From: a virus
IMG/VR virus record: IMGVR_UViG_3300044467_000006
Location: 1 to 21,149 of that record
DNA length: 21,149 nucleotides
Direction: 5' to 3' (one strand)
In this document: in pieces, positions 1,262-15,917 of the stretch
How positions within the stretch are numbered: position 1 is the stretch's first letter
Layout of the letters: each line of letters starts with the position of its first letter
Made by a program: the position numbers and the translations under genes
The notes under the pieces: generated by a model
Seen by the model: only the letters and a program-made list of their open reading frames with translations
What the model was told of the DNA's origin: nothing
The model's database searches: none

Positions 1262-1269
1262 GAGAATGC

Positions 1270-1622: not shown

Positions 1623-2416
1623 AGATTTTTCATGCAAGCGACTGGCATACGGACGGCTACGGAGCCGTCAGCATCCTTGACCGGATGATTCGGGAGGAAG
1701 CTGGCGAGCAGCCCGATCTTGTCATCCTGACCGGCGACATGGTGCGCAACTTTCACCCAAGCCTCAAAGACTTGGGCAACGAGGAAGTGCTCCAAGAGCG
1801 CATCTACCAGAACTTGGTTAGCTACATCGACCGCTGTTGGCCCGGCGTGGACATCTTCGCCGTCCGTGGCAACCATGATTGGTGTGACTACGAAATCTCG
1901 GGGTCGGCCAAGGCGTTTGATGCCCAAGAGGGCGGGAGCTTTGTATGGAACGGATTAAAGGTTGCGGGCTTTCGTGGAGTTCCGGCTCTTCACGGCTTTT
2001 GGAAGGACGAGTACAACGAGAGGCAGCTTGAGGCTTTGTGCGCTGGGGTTCCCAGCAACACCGATATCCTCGTGACACACGCTCCTCCCCATGGTATTAT
2101 GGACGACGTTCGCGACGCGGTAAGTCGCGTTCCAATCCCGGGCATGGAGGATACAACCATCCAGCCCAGACACATTGGTTCTTTTGCTATTAGAGAGTTA
2201 GTGGACAGGCTGCCGAACCTCAAGCTGCACGTCTTTGGTCACTGCCACGAACAGGGCGGGCAGGTGCAATCTAGGACTTACGCTATAAGACAGCCGGTGA
2301 TTCCGTTCTACGGCTCGGGAGCGAAAGAGGGAATCTGCGCTCCCGACCAGAAGTACCGACAAGTCATCTTCTCAAACGCGGCTGGTTGTGTTAATATGAT
2401 TCATCTGGGGGTATAG
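1619..2416 (+). CDS. calcineurin-like metallophosphoesterase
   Basis: Motifs SDWH, TGD, GNHD, THAPP, FGHCH in canonical order; TTG start. Confidence 0.9.
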   Translation: MKIFHASDWHTDGYGAVSILDRMIREEAGEQPDLVILTGDMVRNFHPSLKDLGNEEVLQERIYQNLVSYIDRCWPGVDIFAVRGNHDWCDYEISGSAKAFDAQEGGSFVWNGLKVAGFRGVPALHGFWKDEYNERQLEALCAGVPSNTDILVTHAPPHGIMDDVRDAVSRVPIPGMEDTTIQPRHIGSFAIRELVDRLPNLKLHVFGHCHEQGGQVQSRTYAIRQPVIPFYGSGAKEGICAPDQKYRQVIFSNAAGCVNMIHLGV

Positions 2417-2477
2417 TTCAGCGGTAGAACATCGGCTTTGCAAGCCGAGAACGTTGGTTCGATTCCTACTACCTCCA
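2407..2477 (+). tRNA. trnA: tRNA-Ala (anticodon TGC)
   Basis: Acceptor GGGGGTA/TACCTCC with the G3:U70 Ala identity pair and discriminator A; D-arm GTTC/GAAC; anticodon arm TCGGC-TT TGC AA-GCCGA; T-loop TTCGATT; no encoded CCA. Confidence 0.93.
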
Positions 2478-2518
2478 TGGAAACATCGGGCGTTGTGCAG
2501 AGTCTCAATCTTCCATAC

Positions 2519-3079
2519 ATGGACGAAATCATCTACTCAAAGGAATACGACGGACTTAATAGGAAATGTGTTAGAAGTTCTTGCAAGCACTGCGGCAAGC
2601 CATACGTTGTCAGGTATAGTCTTCGGAAGTCCAAGAAAACATGCTCGATGATGTGCTCTTTCGCTTTGCGTAGTATCAAGCGGGAAGTCCGTTGTGCATG
2701 GTGCAATAAAAGCTTCTCAAGAACACCCAAAAAGCTCAAGACGAAAAGCGGGCTGGTGTTCTGTTCCCGAGCTTGTAAAGACAAAGCACAAAGGATTGGT
2801 GGGCTAGAAGCTATCCAGCCAGACCATTACGGAACAGAAGACCCTCGATACACCTATAGAAAGAGAGCGTTTGAGGTTTACGGCAAAGCGTGTTCTTCGT
2901 GCCACTACACTCATAAAGAATCTATGTTGGATGTACATCACATAGATTCAAACAGAGAGAATAATGCGCTCGGTAACCTTGAAGTTTTATGTGTATGGTG
3001 CCATGCAATTAAAACCCGAAAGCAAGAGTGGCATTTACAACAAGACGGCATCGCATTGACGGAGGAGAAACATGGCTAA
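2519..3079 (+). CDS. HNH (homing) endonuclease with N-terminal Cys zinc-ribbon repeats
   Basis: CKHC, CSMMC, CAWC, FCSRAC repeats, then CSSC...LDVHHIDSNRENNALGNLEVLCVWCH; more AT-rich than flanks; alternative in-frame ATG at 2477. Confidence 0.88.
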   Translation: MDEIIYSKEYDGLNRKCVRSSCKHCGKPYVVRYSLRKSKKTCSMMCSFALRSIKREVRCAWCNKSFSRTPKKLKTKSGLVFCSRACKDKAQRIGGLEAIQPDHYGTEDPRYTYRKRAFEVYGKACSSCHYTHKESMLDVHHIDSNRENNALGNLEVLCVWCHAIKTRKQEWHLQQDGIALTEEKHG

Positions 3080-3548
3080 GCACAAGTGTATCGTTCTTCG
3101 TGGTTGCAGCGGCTCTGGCAAATCTACCTACGCCAAGGTCAACTACCCGAGGGCTCAGGTCTTCTCGACTGACGATTTCTGGATTAACGTCCATACGGGG
3201 GCTTACGAGTTCGATGTCAAGCGTCACTCCGAGGCACATGCATGGAACCTTCGTCGGTTCATCGATGCCGTTCAGTACGCAATCAACTTCGACAGCGACC
3301 CTCAGACCTTCGTGGTGGACAACACCAACACGACGGTCGCGGAGTTCGCTCCGTACTGCGCCATCGCGGGGGCCTACGGCTTCGATGTCGAGATCGTGAC
3401 CATCGACGTGGAGGTTGATGTCGCTCACCCTCGCAACGTCCACAACGTCCCCCAGCCCGTTGTTCATGGGCAGCGCCGGAACCTTGTGGCCAACAACTCC
3501 CTCATCCCGAAGTGGTGGAAGCACAAGAAGGTGGTGCAGGATGGCTAA
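3072..3548 (+). CDS. P-loop kinase, AAA_33 / polynucleotide kinase (N4BP2-like)
   Basis: LRGCSGSGKST Walker A, STDDF, VVDNTN, RNVHNVP; SD GGAGGAG. Confidence 0.85.
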   Translation: MAKHKCIVLRGCSGSGKSTYAKVNYPRAQVFSTDDFWINVHTGAYEFDVKRHSEAHAWNLRRFIDAVQYAINFDSDPQTFVVDNTNTTVAEFAPYCAIAGAYGFDVEIVTIDVEVDVAHPRNVHNVPQPVVHGQRRNLVANNSLIPKWWKHKKVVQDG

Positions 3549-3771
3549 GGACCGCAAGCCTGTCCGTAAGTTCAAGGCAGACGAGTTGCTTGCTATCTTG
3601 CAAGCTAAGATCGACAAGGAAGAGCACACCGTCAAGTGCTGCACGACTGACGACGGGACCGGGGTCCGTTGGCTTATGCGCAGCGAATTCCAGTCCGCTG
3701 CCGCTCGGAAGAGCGCTTTCGTTGAAGCCAAGATATTGCTGCTTGAAGCAGTCGCCAAGGAGACTACATGA
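3541..3771 (+). CDS. hypothetical protein
   Basis: ATG at 3541 overlapping the kinase end; ATGA coupling to the next gene. Confidence 0.65.
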   Translation: MAKDRKPVRKFKADELLAILQAKIDKEEHTVKCCTTDDGTGVRWLMRSEFQSAAARKSAFVEAKILLLEAVAKETT

Positions 3772-4016
3772 ACCCATGCCCTAGCTGTAAACGAACCAAC
3801 GGCACCCACACCATCAACTGCCGTCGCAGGTATACCAAGAGTGAGGACGAGAGCTACCGGGCGTACAACCCCGTCGATCCTCTCGTTACGGCGGCTTTGG
3901 TGGCTATGGCCACGGATAGCTCGTCCGACCCTAGCTCAGTGGACACTTCGTCCTCTGATTCGTGGTCGGGTGGTGGCGGGGACTTCAGTGGCGGTGGCGC
4001 TTCAGGAGACTACTAA
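3768..4016 (+). CDS. small protein with N-terminal CxxC..H..C and C-terminal Ser/Gly-rich tail
   Basis: SD AAGGAG; tail SWSGGGGDFSGGGASGDY. Confidence 0.7.
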   Translation: MNPCPSCKRTNGTHTINCRRRYTKSEDESYRAYNPVDPLVTAALVAMATDSSSDPSSVDTSSSDSWSGGGGDFSGGGASGDY

Positions 4017-4186
4017 TGGACTTCATTACGTGGTGGTTTGACGAGCATTACATCCTTTCAACCGTCTTCACTACCAACATGTCGCTTGCGTGGTCTTTCT
4101 TCACGGGCAACGTTGGGCGAGGGGTTATCTGTACTGCTCTGATTTTTATCGGGGCGGCGTGGCAGAATCGCCAAAAGAGGGGCTAA
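4016..4186 (+). CDS. small membrane protein
   Basis: TAATG coupling at both ends; hydrophobic. Confidence 0.55.
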   Translation: MDFITWWFDEHYILSTVFTTNMSLAWSFFTGNVGRGVICTALIFIGAAWQNRQKRG

Positions 4187-4455
4187 TGCTCAAAAGAATC
4201 TTGGTACTTGCCGCTTTGGCCTTGAGCGCCTGCACTCCGCAAGATGCGCAAAAGATCAAGGAGGTCAGGGTTATCGACCAATGCTTGCGTACCCAAATCT
4301 TTAAGGACTGCCTTGTTGTGGTCCCTAAAGGCCCAGAGAGGATTGCGAACTCTAACGACTGGGAAGAGGTTGTGACTGCATGCGCCGACGCAGCAATGTA
4401 CCAGTCTGTGAGACAGGCTGGACAAGTCAAGGCCGAGTGTGCTATTGTGTGGTAG
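4186..4455 (+). CDS. putative lipoprotein
   Basis: Signal MLKRILVLAALALSA|C with lipobox LSAC; four further Cys. Confidence 0.75.
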   Translation: MLKRILVLAALALSACTPQDAQKIKEVRVIDQCLRTQIFKDCLVVVPKGPERIANSNDWEEVVTACADAAMYQSVRQAGQVKAECAIVW

Positions 4456-4462
4456 GTGACTT

Positions 4463-5080
4463 ATGAACCGCTACAAATATCCGAAGACTCCCCACCTCCC
4501 TTGGAGCCCGGGTATGCAGAACGACGATACTCTCATTGAGAGTCTTGACGACTTCCTTGGGGAGCGGGTCATTGTGACCGAGAAGATGGACGGGGAGAAT
4601 ACGTCCATGTACCGCGACTACATCCACGCTAGGTCTGTGGATGGACGGCATCATCCTAGCCGTAATTGGGTGAAGGCTCTGCACGGAGAAATCAAGCACT
4701 CCATCCTGCCGGGGTGGAGGATTTGTGGCGAGAATCTGTATGCCAAGCACTCGATTGCTTACGAGGATCTGCCGAGCTACTTCATGGTCTTCTCGATTTG
4801 GGACGACGAAAACGGCTGCTGGGATTGGGACTACACCAAGCGATATTGCGCTGTAAGGAATCTAATTACTGTTCCGGTGCTGTATGACGGCATCTGGGAC
4901 GAGGACACTATCCGGTCTTGCTATAGGCCGGGTATGGAAGGCTACGTGGTTCGTAGAGCAGATGGTTTCGAGTTTGACGATTTCCGTAGCCGGGTAGCGA
5001 AGTATGTCCGAGCAGGACACGTTCAAACTTCGGAGCATTGGATGCATCAGGCAATTGTGCCAAATCAAACAAGGAACTAA
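4463..5080 (+). CDS. Rnl2-family RNA/DNA ligase (minimal nucleotidyltransferase domain)
   Basis: KYPKTPHLPWS, motif I TEKMDGEN, CGENLYAKHSI, EGYVVR, AKYVR. Confidence 0.88.
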   Translation: MNRYKYPKTPHLPWSPGMQNDDTLIESLDDFLGERVIVTEKMDGENTSMYRDYIHARSVDGRHHPSRNWVKALHGEIKHSILPGWRICGENLYAKHSIAYEDLPSYFMVFSIWDDENGCWDWDYTKRYCAVRNLITVPVLYDGIWDEDTIRSCYRPGMEGYVVRRADGFEFDDFRSRVAKYVRAGHVQTSEHWMHQAIVPNQTRN

Positions 5081-5081
5081 C

Positions 5082-5339
5082 ATGGCTAAGAAGACTCAGG
5101 TTGTCACGAAGGATCTCACTGACGTTGTTTACTCGTTCTGCAAGAGCCGCTTCAATCGCGGTGGCGAGAAGGACAACTTCCATATGGACACGCTGCGCAA
5201 GCACGTTGCCAAGGTTGTTGGCAAGGTCGCCCCGGATTCGCCGGGTCGAACCCTTCGCCAGCTTCGTTCCTACGGCGCGGTGCAGTACACCGTGCTCGAC
5301 CGCAGCAAGTCGCTGTACGGCATTCTCGGCGTGTACTAA
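5082..5339 (+). CDS. hypothetical protein, possible winged-helix
   Basis: SD AAGGA; APDSPGRTLRQLRSYGAVQY resembles a wHTH recognition helix plus wing. Confidence 0.6.
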   Translation: MAKKTQVVTKDLTDVVYSFCKSRFNRGGEKDNFHMDTLRKHVAKVVGKVAPDSPGRTLRQLRSYGAVQYTVLDRSKSLYGILGVY

Positions 5340-5437
5340 GCCGCTCGCTGACTACGGTACTCGGTGGAACGTCCTACAGAGAGTAGGCCACTCGGTCGCA
5401 ATCCGTAGCTTGCACCCCAAACCGTGCGGGGAGCTTA
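5337..5437 (+). ncRNA. candidate structured intergenic RNA / cis-regulatory element
   Basis: Nested stems TAAGC/GCTTA, CTACGG/CCGTAG, GTGG/CCAC, CCTAC/GTAGG, GCAC/GTGC. Confidence 0.35.
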
Positions 5438-5448
5438 TGGGAGGACAC

Positions 5449-5763
5449 ATGAAGTTAGTAACCAATGACCACTATGGAGGTTTTAGTCTAAGCGCAAAAG
5501 CTATCGCTTGGTTAATCGGGCGGGGCTACAAGCACAAGGGTAGGGTGGTCGACCCCGATTACCGCACTATTGCCCGCAACCACCCCCTCCTTGTGGAGTG
5601 CGTAGCAGAGCTTGGGAGGGACGCCAATGGCGGATGCGCTTCTCTGAGTATTGAAGAAGTGGACGAGTCCGCTCCTTGGTTCCTAGATGAATATGACGGC
5701 GCGGAAAGGATTAGGTATTTCTCAGACGATCACGGCTGTAACTTGACTTCTAACTCGAACTGA
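5449..5763 (+). CDS. conserved phage hypothetical protein
   Basis: SD GGAGGA; motifs YGGFSLS...R.HP.LV...EYDGAE typical of a recurrent phage family. Confidence 0.75.
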   Translation: MKLVTNDHYGGFSLSAKAIAWLIGRGYKHKGRVVDPDYRTIARNHPLLVECVAELGRDANGGCASLSIEEVDESAPWFLDEYDGAERIRYFSDDHGCNLTSNSN

Positions 5764-5771
5764 TTTAGGAT
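5743..5771 (+). promoter_or_regulatory. sigma70-type promoter
   Basis: TTGACT-N17-TAGGAT, ATG 6 nt after the -10. Confidence 0.7.
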
Positions 5772-5777
5772 GGCGGC

Positions 5778-6455
5778 ATGTCAAACATATCTGAGAAGAT
5801 TAACAAGCTCCTCGCCCTCGCTTCGTCCTCCAATCCCCACGAGGCGGCTCTCGCTGCATCCCGAGCGCAGGAGCTTATGATCCGTTATGCGGTGGACGAG
5901 GCAGCCCTTGGCGAAGCTGGGACGGCCAAGAACGAGCCCATCGAGACTCAGCCCGTGGGCTTCACGTATAAGCGTATCCCGAAGTGGGAGCCCATCCTCC
6001 TGAACGCCCTGTCGCGTTCCTTCTTCTGCCGGGCGTTCTACATGCCCGGGGTCGATGCCTACATCGTCGGTCGGGCTTCTGACCGTGCGGCGCTTCTTGC
6101 TACCTTCGCCTACCTCCGCAACGAGGTCCGCAGGCTGGCCGAGATCGGCTGGCAGGCTCAGCCCGCAGAGTTCCATGTCCACGGCAAGCGCTGGAAGGAC
6201 AGCTTCTACCATGGAGTCTGCATCACGGTGCGCGACCGGCTTGCTGAGAGTCTAAAGGAGCTTGTGGCCGACAATTCCAACACTGCCATCGTGCTGGCCA
6301 ACAAGCAGAAGGAAGTGGACGACTTCGTGAGCCAGAATCACAAGCTTCAGACTGGCAGCGCAAAGTCTGTTGACCGCAGCGGTTTCTCGGCTGGCATGAC
6401 CGCTGGCCACGCCCTGAACCTCAAGGGCGGCACCCAGAAGCAGCTTGCAGCCTAG
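5778..6455 (+). CDS. DUF2786 domain protein
   Basis: N-terminal KINKLLALASSSNPHEAALAASRAQELM; C-terminal G...G tail typical of the family. Confidence 0.85.
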   Translation: MSNISEKINKLLALASSSNPHEAALAASRAQELMIRYAVDEAALGEAGTAKNEPIETQPVGFTYKRIPKWEPILLNALSRSFFCRAFYMPGVDAYIVGRASDRAALLATFAYLRNEVRRLAEIGWQAQPAEFHVHGKRWKDSFYHGVCITVRDRLAESLKELVADNSNTAIVLANKQKEVDDFVSQNHKLQTGSAKSVDRSGFSAGMTAGHALNLKGGTQKQLAA

Positions 6456-6463
6456 GAGGATTA

Positions 6464-7462
6464 ATGGAACCCCTTGAAAAGATCGGCTTCTACACTCTGT
6501 CCGACATGCGCCGTCGCACGATCTCTGGCTACGTTGGGGGCTACCGCAACTTTCCCGGTTTGTCTCGTTGCGAACTTCTGATTACGGACGCCTGCAACTT
6601 CAAGTGCCCCTACTGCCGTGGCTGTGCCGAGGAGTTCAAGGGCACCATGAAGGCGTCTGCTGCCTTCAACACCCTTCACCACTGGGTCAGCGACGGGCTC
6701 AAGAACGTTCGCTTCTCTGGAGGCGAACCCACCCTGCATCCTCATCTGGTCGAGATGGTGAAGTTCTGTAAGCTGAATGGAGTCAAGCGCATCGCGCTGT
6801 CTACCAACGGCTCTGCGCCCCCAGCCCAGTACGAGGCTCTGGTCGAGGCTGGGGTCAACGACTTCTCGATCTCGCTGGACGCTTGTTGTGCTGACAAGGG
6901 CGACGAGATGGCTGGCGTCAAGGGCTACTTTCCTGTCGTGGTGGACAACATCCGCTACCTGTCTTCGAAGACCTACGTGACGGTCGGGGTCGTCCTGACG
7001 GACTCCAACGTGGCTGACATGCTGAAGACGGTTACCTTTGCTCACGAGCTTGGGGTGGCCGACATCCGCATCATCTCATCGGCGCAGGAGAACAAGGAGC
7101 TTGCGGACGCCATCAACATTCCGCAGGACATCCTTGACGCGCATCCGATTCTGGCGTATCGTGTTCGTCACATCAAGGAAGGCCGCAACGTCCGAGGCAT
7201 CAAGGAGACTGACTGCAACCGCTGCCCGCTGGTGCTGGACGACATGGCCGTTCTGGGAGACAAGCACTTCCCGTGCATCATCTATCTGCGGGAAGGTGGA
7301 AAGCCGATTGGGACTGTCGGGCCTGACATGATGCTGGAGCGGGCTGTCTGGTATAGGGATCACGACACCCATAAGGATCCAATCTGCAAGAAGAACTGCC
7401 TCGATGTCTGCGTGGACTACAATAATGCAGTCGAACACGAACTGAAGCTCATGGGGGAATAA
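6464..7462 (+). CDS. radical SAM protein with Cys-rich C-terminal (auxiliary cluster-like) region
   Basis: CNFKCPYC (CxxxCxxC), FSGGEPTL, STNGS, ISLD; C-terminal CNRC, HFPC, CKKNCLDVC; SD AGGAGG. Confidence 0.9.
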   Translation: MEPLEKIGFYTLSDMRRRTISGYVGGYRNFPGLSRCELLITDACNFKCPYCRGCAEEFKGTMKASAAFNTLHHWVSDGLKNVRFSGGEPTLHPHLVEMVKFCKLNGVKRIALSTNGSAPPAQYEALVEAGVNDFSISLDACCADKGDEMAGVKGYFPVVVDNIRYLSSKTYVTVGVVLTDSNVADMLKTVTFAHELGVADIRIISSAQENKELADAINIPQDILDAHPILAYRVRHIKEGRNVRGIKETDCNRCPLVLDDMAVLGDKHFPCIIYLREGGKPIGTVGPDMMLERAVWYRDHDTHKDPICKKNCLDVCVDYNNAVEHELKLMGE

Positions 7463-8043
7463 TGTCGAGGACTTACCGCTGTCGCCACCTTCCCTCTCTG
7501 CCCGGCACCACCAAGCGGGTAGTGGAAGGCTGTGGACGATTCGGGTATTACGACAAGGACCGCATTCTGGAGAAGATGCTGGAGAGCCTTGGCTTCCCGC
7601 GTCCCGATCCGTTCGTGCATCCCCTGACCACTATCGTCAAGTCTCCCGGAGCTACGCACAAAGTCTGGCATCCTCCTGTTTACTACGGCAAGCCCAAGTA
7701 CCGAGACCCCGCTGCCTATGGCTTCGCTTTCGACTGGACGGACATCAAGACTCCCGGCTACCACACCATCGAACCCGGAGTCTTCCGGCCTACGGCAGCT
7801 TGGGCTGTCTACAAGCAGGCCAAGGAGCAGCTTGAGAACTCCATCATCTGGCCGGTGAATAGCTGGCACCCTCTCCAGAGGCGCTACAGCGTCGGCAGCC
7901 GCAAGAAGTATTACCGCACGCTGGGGAATCGCCTGAACCGTCACAAGACGCGGCAAATCCTCAAGTCCAGCATCATCGACGAGGATTGGGATGGCTTCTT
8001 TCCGCACAAGAATGAAGTCTTCAACTGGTGGGACATCTACTAG
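7462..8043 (+). CDS. hypothetical protein (basic, aromatic-rich)
   Basis: TAATG coupling; phage-like codon usage. Confidence 0.7.
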   Translation: MSRTYRCRHLPSLPGTTKRVVEGCGRFGYYDKDRILEKMLESLGFPRPDPFVHPLTTIVKSPGATHKVWHPPVYYGKPKYRDPAAYGFAFDWTDIKTPGYHTIEPGVFRPTAAWAVYKQAKEQLENSIIWPVNSWHPLQRRYSVGSRKKYYRTLGNRLNRHKTRQILKSSIIDEDWDGFFPHKNEVFNWWDIY

Positions 8044-8066
8044 GAGGCACCGTGGAACCCGTGAGC

Positions 8067-8246
8067 ATGCACGACATTCGGTGGAACGCTCTGTGGCTGT
8101 TGTCTTATCGCAAAATCAGAAGCGTGAAGAATCATTCCGAGTGCCAAATCCGAGACTGGATCCGACAGAAGGAAGAAACTTACTGGATCCGACAGAAGGA
8201 AAAAACCTACTGGTATACCCTTCTGGTACATGACCGGGGAGTTTGA
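8067..8246 (+). CDS. small hypothetical protein with WIRQKE.TY repeat (start uncertain)
   Basis: ORF after SD GGAGG; contains an in-frame 27-bp duplication. Confidence 0.4.
   Translation: MHDIRWNALWLLSYRKIRSVKNHSECQIRDWIRQKEETYWIRQKEKTYWYTLLVHDRGV
8155..8213. repeat. 27-bp tandem repeat, ~2.2 copies
   Basis: ACTGGATCCGACAGAAGGAAGAAACTT / ACTGGATCCGACAGAAGGAAAAAACCT / ACTGG. Confidence 0.9.
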
Positions 8247-8271
8247 CATTCAAATCGGCTTGATATAGGAT
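8243..8271 (+). promoter_or_regulatory. sigma70-type promoter
   Basis: TTGACA-N17-TAGGAT, ATG 6 nt after the -10. Confidence 0.75.
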
Positions 8272-8277
8272 ACTCGC

Positions 8278-8466
8278 ATGGCTAAGAACATCCGAAGACT
8301 CTGTCAATTTGCTATGGCTTACCCAGAAGAGCGCTGCCTCAAGTGGGCCAACTGGTCAGCGACTGAGCATCTCGGTGCGGAGGGGCTTTGTAATTACGTC
8401 TGCGATACCCACCGACAGCACTACAAGAAGACCTACCCTTTGAGGATCGGGAATAACAATGGCTAA
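8278..8466 (+). CDS. hypothetical protein (Cys/His-containing)
   Basis: ORF directly after the promoter; overlaps the next start. Confidence 0.6.
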   Translation: MAKNIRRLCQFAMAYPEERCLKWANWSATEHLGAEGLCNYVCDTHRQHYKKTYPLRIGNNNG

Positions 8467-8650
8467 AAAGCCCGAGATCGTCCACATGATGAAGTGGGGG
8501 CCGACAACGGAGTGCGGTAAGGTCTTCTACCGCCCCAACCCCAACCGGATTCTGTACCCCACGCTCCTTAGCTCGACAGCAGGCGTCACATGCAAAACCT
8601 GTCTCCGAGCAATGGAGAAAACTATGGTCGAGAGGGCCAAGTCCGAGTAA
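8459..8650 (+). CDS. small Zn-finger-like hypothetical protein
   Basis: H...CG...VTCKTC motif. Confidence 0.6.
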   Translation: MAKKPEIVHMMKWGPTTECGKVFYRPNPNRILYPTLLSSTAGVTCKTCLRAMEKTMVERAKSE

Positions 8651-8670
8651 CTCACCCAAGAAGGAGAACC

Positions 8671-8937
8671 ATGGCTAAGAACAAGCGCATTCACGCCGTC
8701 TGGCGGAACATCGACGAGTCCAACGAGCAGGTTGTCGTCAAGGACGTTGGTAACATCTTCACCTACGGGATGACCGCCAAGGACGTTCTGACGTGGATGA
8801 AGAACCGCAACGTCACCCATGTCGATTGGCAGGATTCCAACTCTGTTGGCAAGGACATGCCGGGCGGCATGAAGAACGGCATGCACACCATCGGGGAGAT
8901 TGCGGCATTCCTGAACGTGCGTAAATCTAAGAGGTAA
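8671..8937 (+). CDS. hypothetical protein
   Basis: SD AAGGAG; strong GC3 codon bias. Confidence 0.7.
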   Translation: MAKNKRIHAVWRNIDESNEQVVVKDVGNIFTYGMTAKDVLTWMKNRNVTHVDWQDSNSVGKDMPGGMKNGMHTIGEIAAFLNVRKSKR

Positions 8938-8939
8938 GT

Positions 8940-9173
8940 ATGGCTGAGAAAAGGCACAAGCGCCCCAGAATCAACGGCACCGCCGAGGAGCGGGCTTGGT
9001 ACCGTGGCTACACATGGGCCATAAAGAACGGCTACGACGAGAACACCAAGGTCGCGCTTGGGGCTGATCTTGGCGATGCCCTGTCTGAATCCATCCGAGA
9101 CTGCCGCATGATTGCCATGGCTTACGCAATGGGGTACAAGAACGGGAGGAAGAGTCGTGCCCGAACTCACTGA
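8940..9173 (+). CDS. hypothetical protein
   Basis: SD GAGGT; tight packing. Confidence 0.65.
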   Translation: MAEKRHKRPRINGTAEERAWYRGYTWAIKNGYDENTKVALGADLGDALSESIRDCRMIAMAYAMGYKNGRKSRARTH

Positions 9174-9342
9174 GGCTCAGCTTTACGATCTCGGCAACAC
9201 CCACAGCGGCTCCTTTAATGGCCACGTATGGAGCGCCTTCATCAAGACCTACATGCAGGACACGAAGCGCCTAAAGAAGCGTATCGACCGACTGCAAGCC
9301 AAGGTCAGAAAGTTGGAACGGAGGAAGCATGCACGACCCTAA
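9157..9342 (+). CDS. hypothetical coiled-coil protein
   Basis: GTG start after GGAGGA; C-terminal coiled coil. Confidence 0.55.
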   Translation: MPELTEAQLYDLGNTHSGSFNGHVWSAFIKTYMQDTKRLKKRIDRLQAKVRKLERRKHARP

Positions 9343-9592
9343 GCTGGATGAGTTGCTTGACGAACTCGAACTAACGTCGGCAGCGTGCGAGTACGCCAAG
9401 GACAATTCCCCTCATGTCGCACTGGTGAAGGCCCGCCAAAATCTTTACCACTACATCGGAGTCTTATCTGACGACCGAAACCGGTTGCTCCTCGCCCTAC
9501 GGGCTGCCCGACAGGCAATCTCCGAGCTTTCCGCTCTGGCTGGCAAGATTGCTAGGGATGCCTTGGCCGTGACCTCTCGCTGGGACAACTAA
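9329..9592 (+). CDS. hypothetical protein
   Basis: SD GGAGGA; TAATG coupling to the next gene. Confidence 0.65.
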   Translation: MHDPKLDELLDELELTSAACEYAKDNSPHVALVKARQNLYHYIGVLSDDRNRLLLALRAARQAISELSALAGKIARDALAVTSRWDN

Positions 9593-9855
9593 TGGACGTT
9601 GAATGCTACATCTGCGACCAGCCGTTCGACATTGAAACCAAGCTAGTCTCCCACCTGAGAAGCCACACCGAACTAGAGGGCCAGATAGCCTCCCAGAAGG
9701 CCAGAAAGGCTCGCCTTGAGGCGAATAAGGACAAGGTGGCCTACGCCGAGGAGGCTGCTCCAGAAGCGCTTAAAACGAAGCCTAAGAAGTCCAAGAAAGA
9801 GTCTCAGAAGGGTACAACTCCAGAAAGCTTGACGCCTCCAACAGAACCTGTATAA
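9592..9855 (+). CDS. C2H2 zinc-finger protein
   Basis: CYICDQPFDIETKLVSHLRSH = C-x2-C-x3-F-x5-L-x2-H-x3-H; basic tail. Confidence 0.75.
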   Translation: MDVECYICDQPFDIETKLVSHLRSHTELEGQIASQKARKARLEANKDKVAYAEEAAPEALKTKPKKSKKESQKGTTPESLTPPTEPV

Positions 9856-9856
9856 T
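9829..9856 (+). promoter_or_regulatory. sigma70-type promoter
   Basis: TTGACG-N16-TATAAT, ATG 7 nt after the -10, no SD. Confidence 0.7.
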
Positions 9857-9863
9857 CGTATCC

Positions 9864-10076
9864 ATGGCAAACACGAACGACATCAAGCTCGTCAAGCTGA
9901 GCGACGAGCCCGAGATGGAGTGCGACATGCACGGCGAAGAGAGCGGTTGCCCGGGTAGTTCATACCCTTACGGGGCTATCGGCTATAGTGGATACGTCTC
10001 TTCGTGCCATGGGCACGCAAAGGAACTGCTCAAGACAGCCATCGAGAGTGGCTGGATGGTCAAGGAGAACGAGTGA
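9864..10076 (+). CDS. hypothetical protein
   Basis: ORF directly after the promoter; Cys/His residues. Confidence 0.65.
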   Translation: MANTNDIKLVKLSDEPEMECDMHGEESGCPGSSYPYGAIGYSGYVSSCHGHAKELLKTAIESGWMVKENE

Positions 10077-10258
10077 TGGGCCACCGCTACGGCATCTTCA
10101 CCAAGAACGGCTGGTTCTACGGCTTCGACACCCAGAAGTGCTGTGGCATCTATGTCCAGAAGCGCGAGAACGCCACGGTCTTTCGTTCTAAGACCAAGGC
10201 AGAGCTTCGAATGAAGCGGGATGGAATCATTGGCGAAGTCGTTAACCTTGACAAGTAA
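10076..10258 (+). CDS. hypothetical protein
   Basis: TGATG coupling; SD AAGGAG. Confidence 0.65.
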   Translation: MGHRYGIFTKNGWFYGFDTQKCCGIYVQKRENATVFRSKTKAELRMKRDGIIGEVVNLDK

Positions 10259-10267
10259 GGAGAAACC

Positions 10268-10435
10268 ATGAGTTACGAGAACGTTCTGCTTGGGATCGCC
10301 GCCGTGTGTGCTTCCATCATCTTCGCTTCTCCAATTATTGCCTTTGGCCTGAGCCCCGGAGGGGCCATCCTCGCCATCGTCTTTGGCGTCGGCGGAATGG
10401 TGGGCATGACCATGGATAAGCTGGCTGCTCTGTAG
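10268..10435 (+). CDS. small membrane protein (55 aa, not in ORF track)
   Basis: SD AAGGAG; MSYENVLLGIAAVCASIIFASPIIAFGLSPGGAILAIVFGVGGMVGMTMDKLAAL. Confidence 0.7.
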   Translation: MSYENVLLGIAAVCASIIFASPIIAFGLSPGGAILAIVFGVGGMVGMTMDKLAAL

Positions 10436-10443
10436 AGGGCTCT

Positions 10444-10557
10444 ATGCTGACTCGATCTGGGAAGACCGCCTCTAGCCAATTCATCAACGGATTCCTCTGC
10501 GGTATCTATATAACTCTCGCCTTGATTACCATCGTGAGGTTGTGGCGCTTGACATAG
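10444..10557 (+). CDS. small membrane peptide (37 aa, not in ORF track)
   Basis: GAGGG upstream; MLTRSGKTASSQFINGFLCGIYITLALITIVRLWRLT. Confidence 0.45.
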   Translation: MLTRSGKTASSQFINGFLCGIYITLALITIVRLWRLT

Positions 10558-10577
10558 AACTCAAGATACCCTATACT
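10549..10577 (+). promoter_or_regulatory. strong sigma70-type promoter
   Basis: TTGACA-N17-TATACT upstream of the DUF932 gene. Confidence 0.8.
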
Positions 10578-10607
10578 CATCAAACCTCGAACGAAAGGAA
10601 CACCACA

Positions 10608-11657
10608 ATGCCTACTCCCTTCCAGCCTGCCGTTAACCCTGCCGACAGCCACAACCCCGCTACCGCCCTCGTCACCGACTTCACGAAGGCCAGCGACACC
10701 GGCCTCGCCCCGTGGCAGGCTGCTGGCACCAAGATCCCCAACGAGGTTCTGACCGCCGAGGACGTGCTGGAGCGCTCTGGCAACCGCTTCAAGGTCAAGA
10801 CGGTTCCGGCCTATGCCAAGGTGGGCGACGAGTTCTACATGGCCAAGGACTCCAAGATGGTGGTCCGCGAGGACAACAACACCGTGCTGGGCGTCGTGGG
10901 CAACAAGTACCGCGTCATCCAGAACGAGGACCAGCTTGGGGCCATCAGCCCGCTGGTCACGAGCGGCTTCGCCAAGTACGACACCGCCGGGCTGGTCTAC
11001 GGCGGCGAGATCGGCTGGGTCATGCTCAAGCTCAACGACGAGATCGTCCTCCCGGGCAGCAACGACTTCGTCCTCAAGTATCTCATGTGCTTGTGGTCAC
11101 ACAACGGAACGTTCAGCCTCCGCATCTTCCCGGCTCCGCTCCGCGCGTTCTGCGCCAACGTCCTCAACAGCCTCCTGTCGTCGTCTTCTGCCAAGAGCGG
11201 TATCTCTATCCGCCACACGAGCAGCGCCGACGCCCGCATCAAGGAGGCTTCTCGCATCATCGAGGCTTCGCAGGGCTTCTACAACGACTTCGCCCAGCGA
11301 GCGGCATCGCTGTCGGCCAAGCGCATGACCGACGCCCAGATGAAGGCCCTGACCGAGCACCTCTTCCCGGCCAAGGCGAACACCGATGGCGAGGTCGAGG
11401 TCAGCACTCGGTCCCAGAACATCCGTGACCAGATCATGGACCTGTTCGTCAAGGGTGCAGGCCACGAGGCTATCCGTGGCACCGCTTGGGCGGGCTATAA
11501 CGCGGTTGCCGAGTTCGCGGACCACTTCCGCACCACTCGGGTCGAGGAGGGTGGCAATGAGAAGGAGAGCCGCTTCGCTGCGACCATGTGGGGCACGGGC
11601 AACGCCCTCAAGACGAAGGCCATCAACTACATTGACAACGAGCTTCTCGCGGCGTAA
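10608..11657 (+). CDS. DUF932 domain protein (phage/plasmid-like protein, TIGR03299-type)
   Basis: Y.VIQN, TAG..GG..W, R.FCAN.L, IRHT, GTAWAGYNAVAEFADH; ATG 10608 after GAAAGGAA and downstream of the promoter. Confidence 0.88.
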   Translation: MPTPFQPAVNPADSHNPATALVTDFTKASDTGLAPWQAAGTKIPNEVLTAEDVLERSGNRFKVKTVPAYAKVGDEFYMAKDSKMVVREDNNTVLGVVGNKYRVIQNEDQLGAISPLVTSGFAKYDTAGLVYGGEIGWVMLKLNDEIVLPGSNDFVLKYLMCLWSHNGTFSLRIFPAPLRAFCANVLNSLLSSSSAKSGISIRHTSSADARIKEASRIIEASQGFYNDFAQRAASLSAKRMTDAQMKALTEHLFPAKANTDGEVEVSTRSQNIRDQIMDLFVKGAGHEAIRGTAWAGYNAVAEFADHFRTTRVEEGGNEKESRFAATMWGTGNALKTKAINYIDNELLAA

Positions 11658-11665
11658 GATACCGT

Positions 11666-11977
11666 ATGGCTAAGGAACTCTGGGAGATTTTGGTCCCAAC
11701 GATGAGGAATGACGGTCGGCCCTTCCGCTTGCGCTATCACAGAGTATGGGATGCGAAGGTTAGGGCGATTTCGGGTGGGCTGACCGTCATGCCGGTAGCT
11801 AAGGGCCAGTGGGTACATGGAGAAAAGCTCTTTACAGAGCGAATGATCCCGGTTAGAATCGTAGCAAGCAGAGCAGAGATGGACAACATCATCGACATGT
11901 CCATCAAGTATTACGACCAGATTGCAATGCTCGCGTACAAGGTTTCAGAGGAAGTCATCCTGAAGTACAGGGAGTAA
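11666..11977 (+). CDS. conserved phage hypothetical protein
   Basis: 103-aa ORF, tight packing. Confidence 0.7.
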   Translation: MAKELWEILVPTMRNDGRPFRLRYHRVWDAKVRAISGGLTVMPVAKGQWVHGEKLFTERMIPVRIVASRAEMDNIIDMSIKYYDQIAMLAYKVSEEVILKYRE

Positions 11978-11980
11978 ACC

Positions 11981-12265
11981 ATGGAAATCAAAAACATCGA
12001 AACCAAGAAGCACCTGACGATCTCGATCACCGAAGAGGAGGCAGCGGTTCTGGCTGCGGCTGCACGCAACTTCTATCAGGCTCGCGCAGCTTACGTCAGA
12101 GAGTGCCCGATGGGCACCGTGAACCTCAAGGCAAACTACGCTGTCCTGCTTAATGACATCGGGACGAATCTAACTAGGGCTATCGACCATCAGAAGAACG
12201 AGGATGTCTGGGCCTACGCAACGAGCGAACAGCCCCTTGTGAGCAGTAACGGCGATCCGATTTAA
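11981..12265 (+). CDS. hypothetical protein
   Basis: SD GGGAG. Confidence 0.65.
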   Translation: MEIKNIETKKHLTISITEEEAAVLAAAARNFYQARAAYVRECPMGTVNLKANYAVLLNDIGTNLTRAIDHQKNEDVWAYATSEQPLVSSNGDPI

Positions 12266-12270
12266 ACTTC

Positions 12271-12622
12271 AAGGGCATCCGCGTATACCCGGGTATCAGA
12301 GCTACGCCGCTTACGTAAACTACCTTCTAAACCCGGCGAGGTATCGGGTAAGTCGGCAAGTACCTAAGAGCACGGCGACTGCTAACGGCCCTGAATGGGG
12401 TAGTTGGAACCCAACGTGACCTGTCGGTGGAGGGAACCGAATGGAGCTAGGACTCTCCAAATTGCGCGGCCCCTTGCACAAGACCTAGTGTGGGTTGGGG
12501 TACCGTTCTGGAGGATTGACGAAAAATTCCTCCCGGTAACTGTTAGCCGTGTGAACACAGAGCCGTAAATTTGACGGAGCCGAGGGTGGAAAGACTCTAC
12601 ACGAAAGCCCTCACTTTCGTAG
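12271..12622 (+). ncRNA. unclassified large structured ncRNA candidate (~350 nt)
   Basis: Largest coding gap in the window; ~10 hairpins, long-range helix CACGG..CTAACGG / CTGTTAG-CCGTG, loop-loop complementarities; G-U pairs favour the + strand. Confidence 0.65.
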
Positions 12623-12631
12623 TGCTATAGT
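12623..12631 (+). promoter_or_regulatory. extended -10 promoter candidate
   Basis: TG-C-TATAGT upstream of the 12640/12769 ORF. Confidence 0.45.
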
Positions 12632-12768
12632 AGAAATGAATGACAACGTTCAGCAAGGCAGAACTTAGAATCAATGGCAAGCTAATTGGCTTGCTAAGCG
12701 AAGTGAAGTACGATGTAGAAACCCGGCGGCATGGGGCTGGCGGGCAAAAACCAAAACAGGAGAATACA

Positions 12769-13245
12769 ATGGCACAGGTTAAGGTGATTGCTGTTACCGC
12801 TGGCGAGGACTTTCTCAAGGCTCTGGAGAAGCTGCTCGGTGGCAAGATCGAGGACATCGCTTCGGGAGCCGTCGAGGCTTCGGCTGAGGCTGTTGCAGAG
12901 GACGAGGAGGAGGGCTGCTCGTGTGGCTGCGATGACTGCGCAGAGGAGAACGAGCCGTCAGTCCCGTTCGGTTCGATCCAGAGCGAGGACGAGGACGATA
13001 TCGCGTTCTACCGCACGTACAACGTCCCCAGCGCCGGGGACCTGAACGTCGTCGTCGGGCAGGATGGCGTTACCACCGAGGGCGAGCGTCATCTCGGCGT
13101 CGAGCCTGAGCATTTCACCAACCTCTTCGCTCCGCAGGGTGCGTTCGCTGAGGTCGAAGCGTTCTACGACGAGAGCGATGAGACTCTCACGGTCGTTCTC
13201 CAGAAGCTCGGTCCCGAGGAGACCGTCGAGATCGAGGGTTGGTAG
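12769..13245 (+). CDS. highly acidic protein, possible divergent HSP20/alpha-crystallin domain
   Basis: ATG after CAGGAG (alternative in-frame ATG 12640); CSCGCDDC linker; C-terminal VEAFYD..ETLTVVLQK....VEIE resembles the HSP20 A.Y..G.L.V.LPK...I.I pattern. Confidence 0.55.
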   Translation: MAQVKVIAVTAGEDFLKALEKLLGGKIEDIASGAVEASAEAVAEDEEEGCSCGCDDCAEENEPSVPFGSIQSEDEDDIAFYRTYNVPSAGDLNVVVGQDGVTTEGERHLGVEPEHFTNLFAPQGAFAEVEAFYDESDETLTVVLQKLGPEETVEIEGW

Positions 13246-13251
13246 TTAAGC

Positions 13252-13333
13252 CGGTTGCGGGTTTGCCGAGAGTGACTACCTTCAGGCGAGGCCGCAACTG
13301 ATAGACGGGGCGCGCATGTCTGGCCTAACGCGC
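13252..13333 (+). other. intergenic long hairpin plus predicted H-type pseudoknot
   Basis: CGGTTGCGG/CCGCAACTG and TTTGCC/GGCGAG stems; TAGAC/GTCTG stem with loop GCGCG pairing CGCGC. Confidence 0.45.
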
Positions 13334-13349
13334 AATTTGAAAGGGAACA

Positions 13350-13688
13350 ATGGCTAAGAACACGATGAGCAAGGGCGAGAAACCGAAGTTCGCACGCAAC
13401 CGTTTCTCAAGAGAAGACAAGGAGCGGAAGCACTCCGAGGCTGTTGCCCGTCAGGGCATCTACGACTCCCTTACAGCAGAGCAGAAGCTCGCTGCGTTGG
13501 ACCGTTGCGGCTTCGCTGCCATCAAGGAACGCATCAAGATCGTGCAGAGCGAGATTTCCAAGCAAGTGCGGCGTTCTGCGGATGTCACGCCGCCCATGGC
13601 GGATCCAGCCGACATTGCGTCGCTGGAGAAGCAGAAGAAGGGCGCGAAGGCCCGCAAGCAATCCAAGAAGGACAAGAAGGCTAGCTAA
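13350..13688 (+). CDS. Lys/Arg-rich hypothetical protein
   Basis: SD AAAGGGA; basic termini. Confidence 0.7.
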   Translation: MAKNTMSKGEKPKFARNRFSREDKERKHSEAVARQGIYDSLTAEQKLAALDRCGFAAIKERIKIVQSEISKQVRRSADVTPPMADPADIASLEKQKKGAKARKQSKKDKKAS

Positions 13689-14275
13689 TGCCTACCGGCT
13701 ATACCTGCGTCATCGATGACGATCCCGCCTGCACCTTCAAGAAGTATGCGTTGAAATGTATTCGCGCATTTGGAGCAGCGGCGCACATGAGGGAAGATTC
13801 TCTTGGCAAGGAGTACGTGCCTCGTGTGCCTAGCATTAGCTATCACGATGAGGCTCTGGAAGAACTTGAAGCTTGGAAGCTCACCGTCGAAGCCCCCGGG
13901 AAGCCGGATGAACTCAAGAAGGTCTATGAGGAGCAGTACAAATCGGCTTTCGACCGATGGCGTAAGAACGAAGAAGAGCGAGTTGAACTGAATGCTCGCT
14001 ACGACAAGATGGCTATCGAAGTTGAAGCTTGGGAGCCTCCTACCCGAGAGCACAAGGGCTTCAAGGCATTCATGTCGAGCCGGCTTAAAGATGGACGGCG
14101 CTATTCACGCGATCCCTATCCGCCTCCAGAGAAGGAGCCATTCGAGGTCTGGGTTTGGGAAGAGAAGACCCGCATTGCCCGAGACATCCAGTACCACACC
14201 GAGGAGAGGCTTAAGGAGATTGAACGCTGCAAGGAGGCCAACGCATGGGTGGAGAAGCTAATCGCAAGCCTGTAG
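13688..14275 (+). CDS. conserved phage hypothetical protein (MPTGYT N-terminus, coiled coil)
   Basis: TAATG coupling; MPTGYT...CIRAFGA..HMR and W.PPT.EH..FK.FM pattern. Confidence 0.75.
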   Translation: MPTGYTCVIDDDPACTFKKYALKCIRAFGAAAHMREDSLGKEYVPRVPSISYHDEALEELEAWKLTVEAPGKPDELKKVYEEQYKSAFDRWRKNEEERVELNARYDKMAIEVEAWEPPTREHKGFKAFMSSRLKDGRRYSRDPYPPPEKEPFEVWVWEEKTRIARDIQYHTEERLKEIERCKEANAWVEKLIASL

Positions 14276-15051
14276 TCTCCGTCGTGCTGGTGGACTTCAG
14301 CAACTACGTCTTTGCGTGCTGGTTCCCGGCGCTGTCAGCACAGAAGGCCGATCCCAAGTACGACCCCCACGAGGTTCTGAAGACGAACCTGATGGGGAAG
14401 CTCGGCACCATGCAGCGGACCATGAACGAGATCGGGATGATTGACCCCAAGATCCTCTTCGTGGAAGACCGGAAGTCGAAGCGCAAGTACGAGCTTTGGC
14501 CTTCCTACAAGGCCAACCGCCCTCCCCTTGAGCACGACCCTAGGCCCGAGGCCAAGGAGTTCCTCAAGTCTCAGGGATACACGCACTTCTCGCACTCGCC
14601 AGACAACGAGGCAGATGACGCGATTGCGTCGATGGTCCACAATGTGGGTGGAACATTCACTATTGTCATCGCTTCTTCCGACAAGGATCTTTGGCAGCTT
14701 ATTCGGCCCAACGTAGATGTCTGGTCAACGACCAAGGATTCATTCGTAACGCAGGAGATGATCTTCAAGGAGTTTGGGGTCCAGTCTCCCGTTAGCATCC
14801 CTATCGTCAAGGCCCTCTGGGGTGACAGTGGCGACAATGTTCCTAATTCCGTGCCGCGCATGCAGAAGCAGCTAGAGCCCATTGCGAATCTTTCCAATGG
14901 CGACATCAAAGAATTTTGGAAGTCCGTCAGCCATCTGAGGGGTACGTTAAGTCCTCGCTGTGTCGAGCTTCTCCAGAAGGGCGAGGCTCAAGTGAATCTC
15001 AACTGGCAGCTAGTCAAGCTTGACGAGCACTGCGAGATTGTGGCAGAGTGA
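14245..15051 (+). CDS. 5'-3' exonuclease / flap endonuclease (T4 RNase H, PolI N-terminal-like)
   Basis: LVDFSN, FVED, YKANR, EADDAIA, SSDKDL, GDSGDNVP; SD AAGGAGG 7 nt before ATG 14245. Confidence 0.9.
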   Translation: MGGEANRKPVVSVVLVDFSNYVFACWFPALSAQKADPKYDPHEVLKTNLMGKLGTMQRTMNEIGMIDPKILFVEDRKSKRKYELWPSYKANRPPLEHDPRPEAKEFLKSQGYTHFSHSPDNEADDAIASMVHNVGGTFTIVIASSDKDLWQLIRPNVDVWSTTKDSFVTQEMIFKEFGVQSPVSIPIVKALWGDSGDNVPNSVPRMQKQLEPIANLSNGDIKEFWKSVSHLRGTLSPRCVELLQKGEAQVNLNWQLVKLDEHCEIVAE

Positions 15052-15057
15052 GGAACC

Positions 15058-15717
15058 ATGGATAAGAAGCCAACATACACCATTCTTGTAGACCTTGACG
15101 CCATCGTGGCCGACCTGATGACCGACTGGCTCGCGCTCTACAATGCTGCTCGGCCCAATCGCAAGCCCGTGGTGCCCGAGGACGTTACCTCATGGAACAT
15201 CGGCAAGGCTATCGGGGACAAGTCCATCGACGGCTTCCTGAATGCTCCCGGGCTATACCCCAACCTCAAGCCCATGTCGGGTGCCATCGAGGCGCTCAAG
15301 CAGATCACGAGGATGAAGTGGAACACCACTGGCGGGCTGGTCTACGATGTTGTCTTCCTTACGTCAGCCATCTCTTCTCCGCACATTCTTGCGGACAAGT
15401 CCGCATGGCTACGCCAGCACTTCCCATTCATTGGTCCGAAGAACCACATGTACGGCTACAAGAAGGCGTTGGTGCGTGGAGACTTCTTCATCGACGATGC
15501 GCCCAAGAACCTTCAGGCGTGGAAGGCTGCGAATCCAGACGGCCTGACGGTGACCATCACGTACCCGTACAACAAGGATACAGAGGTAGACTTCCGGGCA
15601 GGAAGCTACACCGACATGGAAGGTACGTGGGGTAAGATTCGGGACTTCTTCGCGACTTACAGGCGTGTGGCCGAGGAGGAGATGGCTACGGAGAAAGAGG
15701 GGGCAACTCTTCAATGA
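15058..15717 (+). CDS. 5'(3')-deoxyribonucleotidase, NT5C / HAD family
   Basis: VDLDAIVAD (DxD), FLTS, K..WL..HFP, GDFFIDDAPKNL, YN. Confidence 0.88.
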   Translation: MDKKPTYTILVDLDAIVADLMTDWLALYNAARPNRKPVVPEDVTSWNIGKAIGDKSIDGFLNAPGLYPNLKPMSGAIEALKQITRMKWNTTGGLVYDVVFLTSAISSPHILADKSAWLRQHFPFIGPKNHMYGYKKALVRGDFFIDDAPKNLQAWKAANPDGLTVTITYPYNKDTEVDFRAGSYTDMEGTWGKIRDFFATYRRVAEEEMATEKEGATLQ

Positions 15718-15917
15718 AAGCCGACGAGCTAAGGCAGCCCGGTAACGAGAGAAAGCTTCTAAGGATTATTAGGACTGTCGCCAAAGCCTCGTTCTTTGAC
15801 GATAGAACGGAAGACGAATTTCGATCGGCCCTGCGCGAAATCCTGATTCTAATGAAGGGCGTCGGCAACGAACCACTAGAAGAATACGAGTGGGATCATT
15901 TCCAACCTATTCAATAG
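15714..15917 (+). CDS. hypothetical protein
   Basis: ATGA coupling; 3' end overlaps the convergent gene. Confidence 0.55.
   Translation: MKADELRQPGNERKLLRIIRTVAKASFFDDRTEDEFRSALREILILMKGVGNEPLEEYEWDHFQPIQ

Follow-up and report, generated by a model that had tools for sequence, protein, structure and literature searches.

The question raised by this locus is whether a 374-nt gap without an open reading frame (12266-12639) in a tightly packed phage genome encodes an RNA and, if it does, which kind of RNA this is. The window analyzed here, a stretch of 21,149 nt, opens an IMG/VR phage contig of 94 kb with a CheckV completeness of 57%, and its genes from about 250 to 15,900 are all located on the + strand and belong to the early or replication type. 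The gap is preceded by a gene for a DUF932 protein (10542-11657, +) and two small orphan genes (11666-11977 and 11981-12265, both +), and is followed, in this order, by genes for an orphan acidic protein, a phrog_8905 protein, a FEN-type 5'-3' exonuclease and an NT5C nucleotidase. A reading made from the sequence alone (hereafter the sequence-only reading) had described the gap as the only large ORF-free one; it is the largest both in the window and in the 94-kb contig, but other gaps of at least 150 nt exist. Elsewhere, the phage carries an RNA-repair cluster, genes for an SbcC-like nuclease subunit and a ribonucleotide reductase, and a gene for a GroEL-like chaperonin (phrog_5725, E 1e-77) at 85564-87423 of the contig (L005:4564-6420).

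The gap is non-coding when judged by the phage's own codon statistics, with all three + frames of 12266-12639 scoring from -0.26 to -0.60 bits per codon, compared with +0.36 to +0.70 for the neighboring genes. The longest stop-to-stop frames within it are 58 aa (+ strand) and 80 aa (- strand), and two translations of gap frames found zero matches in collections of 5.8e9 and 1.8e9 proteins. A hidden protein gene was rejected on the basis of the negative codon statistics and the lack of homologues of the translations, and on the same grounds no conserved small ORF, of the kind that the sequence-only reading had set against its own RNA proposal, was detected in the gap. A micro-ORF candidate was observed at 12429-12488 (+), in which a strong Shine-Dalgarno sequence, GGAGGG (12429-34), is followed after a 6-nt spacer by an ATG at 12441, 15 codons (MELGLSKLRGPLHKT) and a TAG at 12486-88; its reading frame (12441-12488) sits in the invariant core of the RNA described below.

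The stretch 12100-12900 (801 nt) was present in whole or in part in 24 public runs from sediment and freshwater, including nine metatranscriptomes, and several of the RNA runs contain 0.41-0.54 of its words, about the length of the gap or of the RNA. Assembled contigs (Logan) over 11400-13800 were examined for three RNA runs (X2, X6 and X7) and one DNA run (X3), and stretches that no contig covers in the RNA runs were not counted as evidence. In X6, the contig spanning 12288-12601 displays a depth of 45.7, and the other contigs of the phage in this run display depths of 2.3 (11400-11495), 4.4 (11838-11983), 2.6 (12749-12899) and 3.2 (12904-13286); in X7, a contig ending at 12610 has a depth of 16.1, against 5.6 for 12871-13311. 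The RNA contigs, 12288-12601 in X6 and 12238-12610 in X7, are thus found at 3-17 times the depth of the contigs of neighboring genes, a ratio between assembled contigs, each with a single depth figure, in runs chosen for containing this stretch, and ranking by depth calls for caution. On the basis of these assembled contigs, the gap is over-represented in RNA libraries and encodes a real, abundant, orphan phage non-coding RNA.

The contigs of X6 and X7 run straight on into (A)GATCGGAAGAGCGTCGTGTAGGG (AGATCGGAAGAGCGTCGTGTAGGG), at 12600/12601 and at 12610, respectively, and we take this sequence to be the Illumina adapter of the read-2-end type. As the contigs pass into the adapter, 12600/12601 and 12610 must have been the ends of many sequenced fragments, the two adapter-capped ends being 10 nt apart, and the contig of the DNA run X3 (12494-13194) reads through both positions. 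In the usual dUTP stranded chemistry, read 2 corresponds to the sense strand, so the adapter type would place the RNA on the + strand and the ends on its 3' side, assuming that these libraries, whose protocol is not on record, were made in this manner. An RNA from the - strand is unlikely, since the adapter type implies + sense under the dUTP convention, the neighboring genes all read in the + direction and a scan for promoters on the - strand was negative. The ends at 12600 and 12610 fall at the foot and in the loop of a 7-bp terminal hairpin, ACGAAAG-CCCTCA-CTTTCGT (12601-12620, +), which is not followed by a U-tract, and they would fit random priming of an RNA that ends with this hairpin. 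The minimum observed extent of the RNA body in the X6 and X7 contigs is 12288-12610 (probably +), and the limits of 12271-12622 that had been drawn from the letters nearly match those of the RNA, about 12288 and 12600/12610. A perfect 12-nt palindrome, ATACCCGGGTAT, is located at 12285-12296, exactly where the X6 contig starts (12288), and may represent a processing or binding site, or a coincidence.

The expectation that RNA sequencing would reveal a discrete species was borne out in part, as abundant RNA was observed in the metatranscriptome contigs, but its discreteness is weakened by contigs of X2 and X7 that join it to flanking genes. A single X2 contig (12242-13252) comprises the gap together with the downstream gene at a depth of 20.5, where the two upstream alleles of the same run sum to 11, and in X7 the upstream gene and the RNA share one contig; both observations speak against a fully separate RNA molecule. 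In addition, DNA carry-over can be present in RNA libraries, and an adapter-capped 5' end was found in none of the X2, X6 and X7 contigs.

Among the possible explanations, we regard as moderately probable that the intergenic region yields a discrete, stable + strand non-coding RNA of about 315-335 nt, which would likely be processed from the transcript that begins before ATG 11666 (P11666). The nearest recognizable promoter upstream of the RNA is a canonical one, TTGACA-N17-TAAGAT (11632-11660, +), which ends 5 nt before ATG 11666 and would drive a leaderless unit consisting of 11666-11977 and 11981-12265, followed by the RNA region. A pattern scan of the contig exposed eight TTGACN-N16/17-TANNNT promoters ending 5-7 nt before an ATG, three of which were read directly; they are located at 5743-5780, 8243-8280, 9829-9866 and 11632-11665 in the window, and at approximately 32692-32725, 33522-33555, 34642-34675 and 66991-67024 in the contig. 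Judging from this spacing, many early genes appear to start as leaderless mRNAs, which hints at a host in which leaderless translation is common. No canonical promoter was detected directly before the RNA in the promoter scans of the contig, and no repeated promoter-like motif is common to 12228-12300 and the rest of the genome. The TAAACT box (12263-68) that had been proposed as a -10 element, and that overlaps the stop codon of the upstream gene, fares poorly, as the nearest -35-like hexamer, TTGTGA (12237-42), is 20 nt away and the promoter scan was negative; a non-canonical promoter may nevertheless serve the RNA.

As the RNA lies downstream of the promoter at 11632-11660 and displays no promoter of its own, it most likely arises because the 3' part of the early transcript is processed or outlasts the rest. 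The many short hairpins would protect the RNA while the coding part of the transcript decays, its 5' limit would be near 12288 or slightly upstream, and its 3' end would probably be at the terminal hairpin, at about 12620, with the next gene restarting from its own extended -10 box or being reached by read-through. Such an RNA would accumulate well above the mRNAs of its neighbors during infection in sediment communities, and would comprise an invariant 5' and core part (12238-12536) and an exchangeable 82-nt 3' part (12537-12618). By analogy with the early transcripts of the mycobacteriophages L5, D29 and StarStuff, it may act as RNA, in trans or as a stabilizing end.

Rather unlikely, but the first alternative to be weighed against a stable processed RNA, is a long structured 5' leader of the acidic-protein gene, on a transcript from upstream of 12288 to about 13252, of which the abundant fragment would be a product of premature termination or processing in the manner of an attenuator or riboswitch. 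The X2 contig, in which the gap and the gene are continuous, is consistent with such a leader, but this bridge may also stem from read-through or from DNA. The RNA and the gene likewise share one block of sequence starting at 12238, and mutually exclusive pairings of the kind used by switches are present, in which GTTGG may pair with CTAAC or with CCAAC, and CCCAAC with GTTGGG; however, no riboswitch or leader family matched even at E<=10, and a + strand scan exposed no terminator-like hairpin with a U-tract at the 3' ends. The acidic-protein gene (12640-13245, +) would give a product of 201 aa with a start at ATG 12640 and one of 158 aa with a start at ATG 12769, the latter having GGAG in front of it, and the gene callers disagree between these two starts; the coding score is 0.70 bits per codon for 12769-13242 versus 0.12 for 12640-12768, the latter below the 5th percentile of real coding windows. 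A start at ATG 12769, with GGAG as its Shine-Dalgarno sequence, would give an untranslated leader of about 480 nt, and no promoter was found between the RNA and the gene in a scan for two hexamers. Against this, an extended -10-like box, TGcTATAGT (12623-12631, +), lies 8 nt upstream of ATG 12640, the promoters of this phage being found 5-7 nt ahead of start codons, and it is hypothesized to be the own promoter of a leaderless downstream gene, although with nine such matches in the contig the motif carries low information. The protein, which is very acidic, found only itself and a variant of at least 90% identity among 5.8e9 proteins, had no usable match in the protein atlas, and its structure, predicted without an alignment, had a pLDDT of 34, too low for use. 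It exhibits a CSCGCDDC cysteine cluster and, in other strains, a patch of indels and substitutions at 13087-13100, and it could be a protein of the DNA-mimic or anti-defence type.

An ornate RNA with tertiary structure, acting as a ribozyme, scaffold or decoy and built of a multi-stem junction core with a long-range closing helix, loop-loop contacts and a swappable 3' module, is the explanation that the sequence-only reading had preferred, and we consider it improbable. The high abundance and discrete ends seen in the contigs are consistent with it, and so is the lack of a match to any known family. The motifs on which it was built are all present where that reading placed them, including the outer long-range helix CACGG (12371-75)/CCGTG (12547-51), the inner one CTAACGG (12382-88)/CTGTTAG (12540-46), the proposed kissing loop CTAGG (12447-51)/CCTAG (12484-88), the 5' hairpin ACCCGG (12331-36)/TCGGGT (12344-49), TACCT at 12321-25 and 12361-65, and GGAGGA/TCCTCC (12510-33). 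The thermodynamic centroid retains the outer helix and the hairpins GGAGGA/TCCTCC, TGGAG/CTCCA and GCCCT/GGGGT, and predicts a core domain (12370-12552, +) closed, in both the centroid and the MFE structure, by GCACGGC (12370-76)/GCCGTGT (12546-52), with three arms at 12382-12407, 12410-12499 (hairpin 12442-12459 inside) and 12501-12538 (GGAGGA/TCCTCC inside). It also predicts a 5' hairpin domain (12306-12357, +) with the pairs GCCG/CGGC, CTTAC/GTAAG and TACCTT/GAGGTA, which is found in the centroid of both alleles described below and competes with the hairpin ACCCGG/TCGGGT. The centroid differs from the fold first proposed by pairing CTAAC locally with GTTGG, by pairing TACCTT with GAGGTA and by placing CCTAG (12484-88) inside a stem rather than in a loop, which argues against the loop-loop contact; since several other pairings are used, the kissing loop and the pseudoknots are model-dependent 5-nt matches.

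Differential results were obtained for folding energy and for hairpin number. The gap had been called almost entirely pairable, a description that is not beyond chance by folding energy, as its MFE is -120 kcal/mol compared with -121±6.7 in dinucleotide shuffles (z +0.16 on the + strand; z -0.83 on the reverse strand), and candidate transcript bounds give z values of -0.13 to +0.68. This whole-RNA z of about zero speaks against an ornate fold, whereas 12371-12551 alone reaches z -2.29, in its favor, with boundaries that were chosen after the fact by the proposed closing helix. Sliding 180-nt windows range from z +1.67 to -1.02, and 45 random windows of the genome show a mean of -0.33, an sd of 0.99 and a minimum of -2.44. 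On the other hand, when hairpins with at least 5 Watson-Crick pairs and loops of 3-20 were counted, the gap was found to contain eight non-overlapping perfect hairpins (43 bp), against 3.8±1.45 in dinucleotide shuffles (eight being reached in 3/500) and 3.9±1.5 over 1,069 contig windows, 1% of which reach eight; this enrichment is again what an ornate RNA would show. Long-range 5-mer complementarity in the gap is below the shuffle mean. The hairpin count is modestly above chance and the folding energy is not, and the region is therefore hairpin-rich but not unusually stable. With folding energy this ordinary, the suggestion of a large structured RNA in the spirit of GOLLD and ROOL is unsupported.

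The population history of the locus was assessed from the metagenomic contigs and from variants. A mosaic (recombination) boundary is located at 12238-12241, upstream of which the 94-aa gene is present as a diverged or replaced allele and from which on the sequence is shared; in X2 and X3, loose contig ends occur before 12238. The X7 contig exhibits 10 differences in 98 positions at 11978-12075, a replacement of 162 nt (12076-12237) by 171 others and a single difference in 12238-12610. Across the population, the 94-aa gene is hypervariable, one allele being about 10% different in its first third and unalignable in the remainder. Downstream of 12238, co-occurring strains are essentially identical through the RNA and the downstream gene, with the exception of the small patch at 13087-13100, and since this near-identity extends to the downstream gene, the identity of the RNA reflects a recently shared block and not selection on the RNA. 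A look-up of variants of the flanking proteins gave three further contigs, of which L008 is identical to the window, L006 is identical except for a 30-nt in-frame tandem duplication in the upstream gene, and L007, a JGI contig, is identical over 12123-12536 and from 12619 on. Between these two blocks, the variable 3' part of the RNA (12537-12618, +) is an 82-nt patch with two alleles that differ at 39 of 82 positions (about 48%, with 21 transitions and one gap) between flanks of 100% identity. In L007, the patch starts at the base of the last core arm and extends through the terminal hairpin to its end, and identity resumes just before TGcTATAGT (12623-31). A variable region of the DGR type was rejected, as the differences in L007 are not confined to adenines, the alignment contains a gap and no reverse transcriptase was noticed in an informal look at the contig.

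The core and the 5' domain are invariant in sequence and thus give no covariation information, and the two alleles speak to the structure through the patch. L007 keeps the closing helix 12370-76/12546-52 as GTTGTGC, in which two G-C pairs became G.U, one G.U became G-C and no pair was lost, the three changes all being one-sided and wobble-compatible (C to U, C to U and U to C). When the columns of the patch were shuffled, a helix of at least 7 bp paired in both alleles arose on the pre-specified segment 12365-12390 in 5/1000 and anywhere upstream in 515/1000, and full retention under neutral change at the rate of the patch has a probability of about 0.035 by our own estimate. A closing helix that was predicted before any variant was known and that survives a 48% diverged patch points toward an ornate fold. 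Only the outer of the two proposed long-range helices (CACGG/CCGTG) was kept in this manner, which lends it weak support, but the inner one (CTAACGG/CTGTTAG) loses 3 of its 7 pairs. L007 offers an alternative 11-bp pairing of TAGTAGTCGTC with 12374-84, and the duplex energy of 12365-12392 with the patch is not better than that with shuffled patches in either allele (683/2000 and 158/2000), a further point against such a fold. The 3' hairpins that had been proposed gain nothing from the comparison, as RNAalifold reports three double-changed pairs and shuffled columns give as many in 179/400, so that the compensatory pairs of the 3' domain equal the null expectation; in the terminal hairpin of L007, one G-C pair is replaced by A-T in a compensatory manner, and one G.U and one A.C mismatch are present. 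Taken as sequences, the two alleles, which differ only in 12537-12618, would weakly support closure of the core and do not support the 3' hairpins at all.

The RNA was also compared with known families and searched for relatives. The prediction that it belongs to no known class, whether RNase P, tmRNA, group I or II intron or HEARO, was confirmed, as no Rfam 15 model matched in the gap. At the gathering score, the sole Rfam 15 match in the window is a tRNA-Ala at 2407-2477, with none in the rest of the contig, and the models for GOLLD, ROOL, 6S, Y RNA and riboswitches did not reach their gathering thresholds in the gap. At E<=10 with lax filters, Rfam 15 gave only a 9.7-bit chance match over 12100-12900, outside the gap, and at E<=10 nothing but a 13-bit chance match for the L007 allele; ARAGORN detected no tRNA or tmRNA in the gap. 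Similarly, neither the gap nor 10542-15051 had a blastn match among 50,697 phage records, and tblastn of the flanking proteins returned only distant matches (<35%) to the DUF932, phrog_8905 and FEN exonuclease proteins, in unrelated phages and without synteny. A search for related loci in IMG/VR with the upstream protein, the downstream protein, the DUF932 protein and the major head protein gave no relatives, and exact-pattern scans of viral, metagenome and genome contigs gave only an 18-nt chance match in a giant-virus contig. The homologues that were to be collected for covariation analysis were thus not encountered in phage records, IMG/VR, or metagenome and genome contigs, and the RNA, its two small neighbors and the phage as a whole have no relatives in the collections searched. 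The elaborate fold is unconfirmed because no relatives were found, and this lack of homologues for covariation weighs against an ornate RNA; the comparison with ornate RNAs or ribozymes, and any specific architecture for this RNA, remain unsupported. An antisense target within the phage genome was rejected, as the longest complement is 12 nt, which is the chance level.

A more far-reaching proposal is that the element represents a new family of mid-sized structured phage RNAs, in which an invariant multi-stem core with a long-range closing helix would be combined with an exchangeable 82-nt 3' domain that determines specificity, for instance toward a host or phage partner, and which, abundant early, would act in trans, for instance by serving host takeover or counter-defence as a decoy or scaffold; we hold this to be a slim possibility. 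Slimmer still is that there is no function at all, the RNA being a mosaic-recombination spacer that outlives the mRNA or its excess an artefact of contig depth, DNA carry-over and run selection, for although ordinary thermodynamics, the company of orphan neighbors, a position at the mosaic boundary with a freely diverged patch and the warning against ranking contig depths all agree with it, random DNA fragments would hardly yield adapter-capped ends in two runs, a 10-17x step in depth is seen from one contig to another within a single run (X6), many RNA runs contain a share of words close to the length of the RNA (three were examined by contig) and the gap is the largest non-coding one in a tightly packed 94-kb genome.

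The stable RNA processed from the early transcript, which we favor, has its closest counterparts in kind, by analogy, in the abundant ORF-free early transcripts of L5, D29 and StarStuff. These cluster A mycobacteriophages express abundant, stable early non-coding RNAs, namely a Pleft transcript of about 500 nt at the right end of the genome and an RNA from the intergenic region of D29 63-64 and StarStuff 68-69, that of D29 63-64 peaking above the flanking genes, and the function of these RNAs is not known (PMC5712189). The RNA described here is likewise phage-encoded, free of ORFs and a few hundred nt long, is found far above its flanking genes and lies in an early, non-structural arm, and two features of the L5/D29 type, no conserved ORF and RNA far above the flanks, were both observed here, the latter at the level of contigs. 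Unlike it, the mycobacteriophage RNAs were demonstrated by Northern blot and RNA-seq in culture, whereas the present one is known from metatranscriptome contigs alone; a strong promoter has been mapped at the start of the Pleft RNA, and no such promoter is seen before this RNA; and there is no sequence similarity between them (blastn, 50,697 phage records). The large ornate RNAs GOLLD and ROOL, which often occur in phages and prophages, are families defined by extensive covariation and lately by multimeric cryo-EM structures (bioRxiv 10.1101/2024.12.08.627333; PMC5737381). The present RNA resembles them in being non-coding and phage-borne, with a function that is not known and several predicted stems around junctions, and differs in being about half their size or less, in matching no Rfam model and in its ordinary folding energy.

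A third point of comparison is given by processed small RNAs such as DicF, which is cut from the dicB operon transcript; small RNAs that are derived from 3' UTRs or otherwise processed are mostly 50-150 nt long and carry a Rho-independent terminator and a defined seed. As in that group, the RNA would come from a longer operon transcript and outlive its coding part, and no promoter of its own was seen; unlike them, it measures about 320 nt, has no U-tract terminator and finds no antisense target longer than 12 nt in the phage. Its interest lies in being an RNA of an uncultured sediment phage with an expression so strong that small community RNA libraries yield it as assembled contigs, and in two natural alleles which swap only the 3' 82 nt and so amount to a domain-swap experiment that is already at hand. 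Should the core turn out to have a defined fold, this would be a new viral RNA class; if it does not, the RNA would be another stable processed transcript end, relevant to annotation and not surprising. Phage transcriptomes, such as those of L5 and D29 and of crAss-like phages, repeatedly reveal abundant non-coding RNAs that are a few hundred nt long, and to our knowledge almost none of them has a known function. It is with these abundant phage non-coding transcripts, a known kind, that the RNA of this locus belongs.
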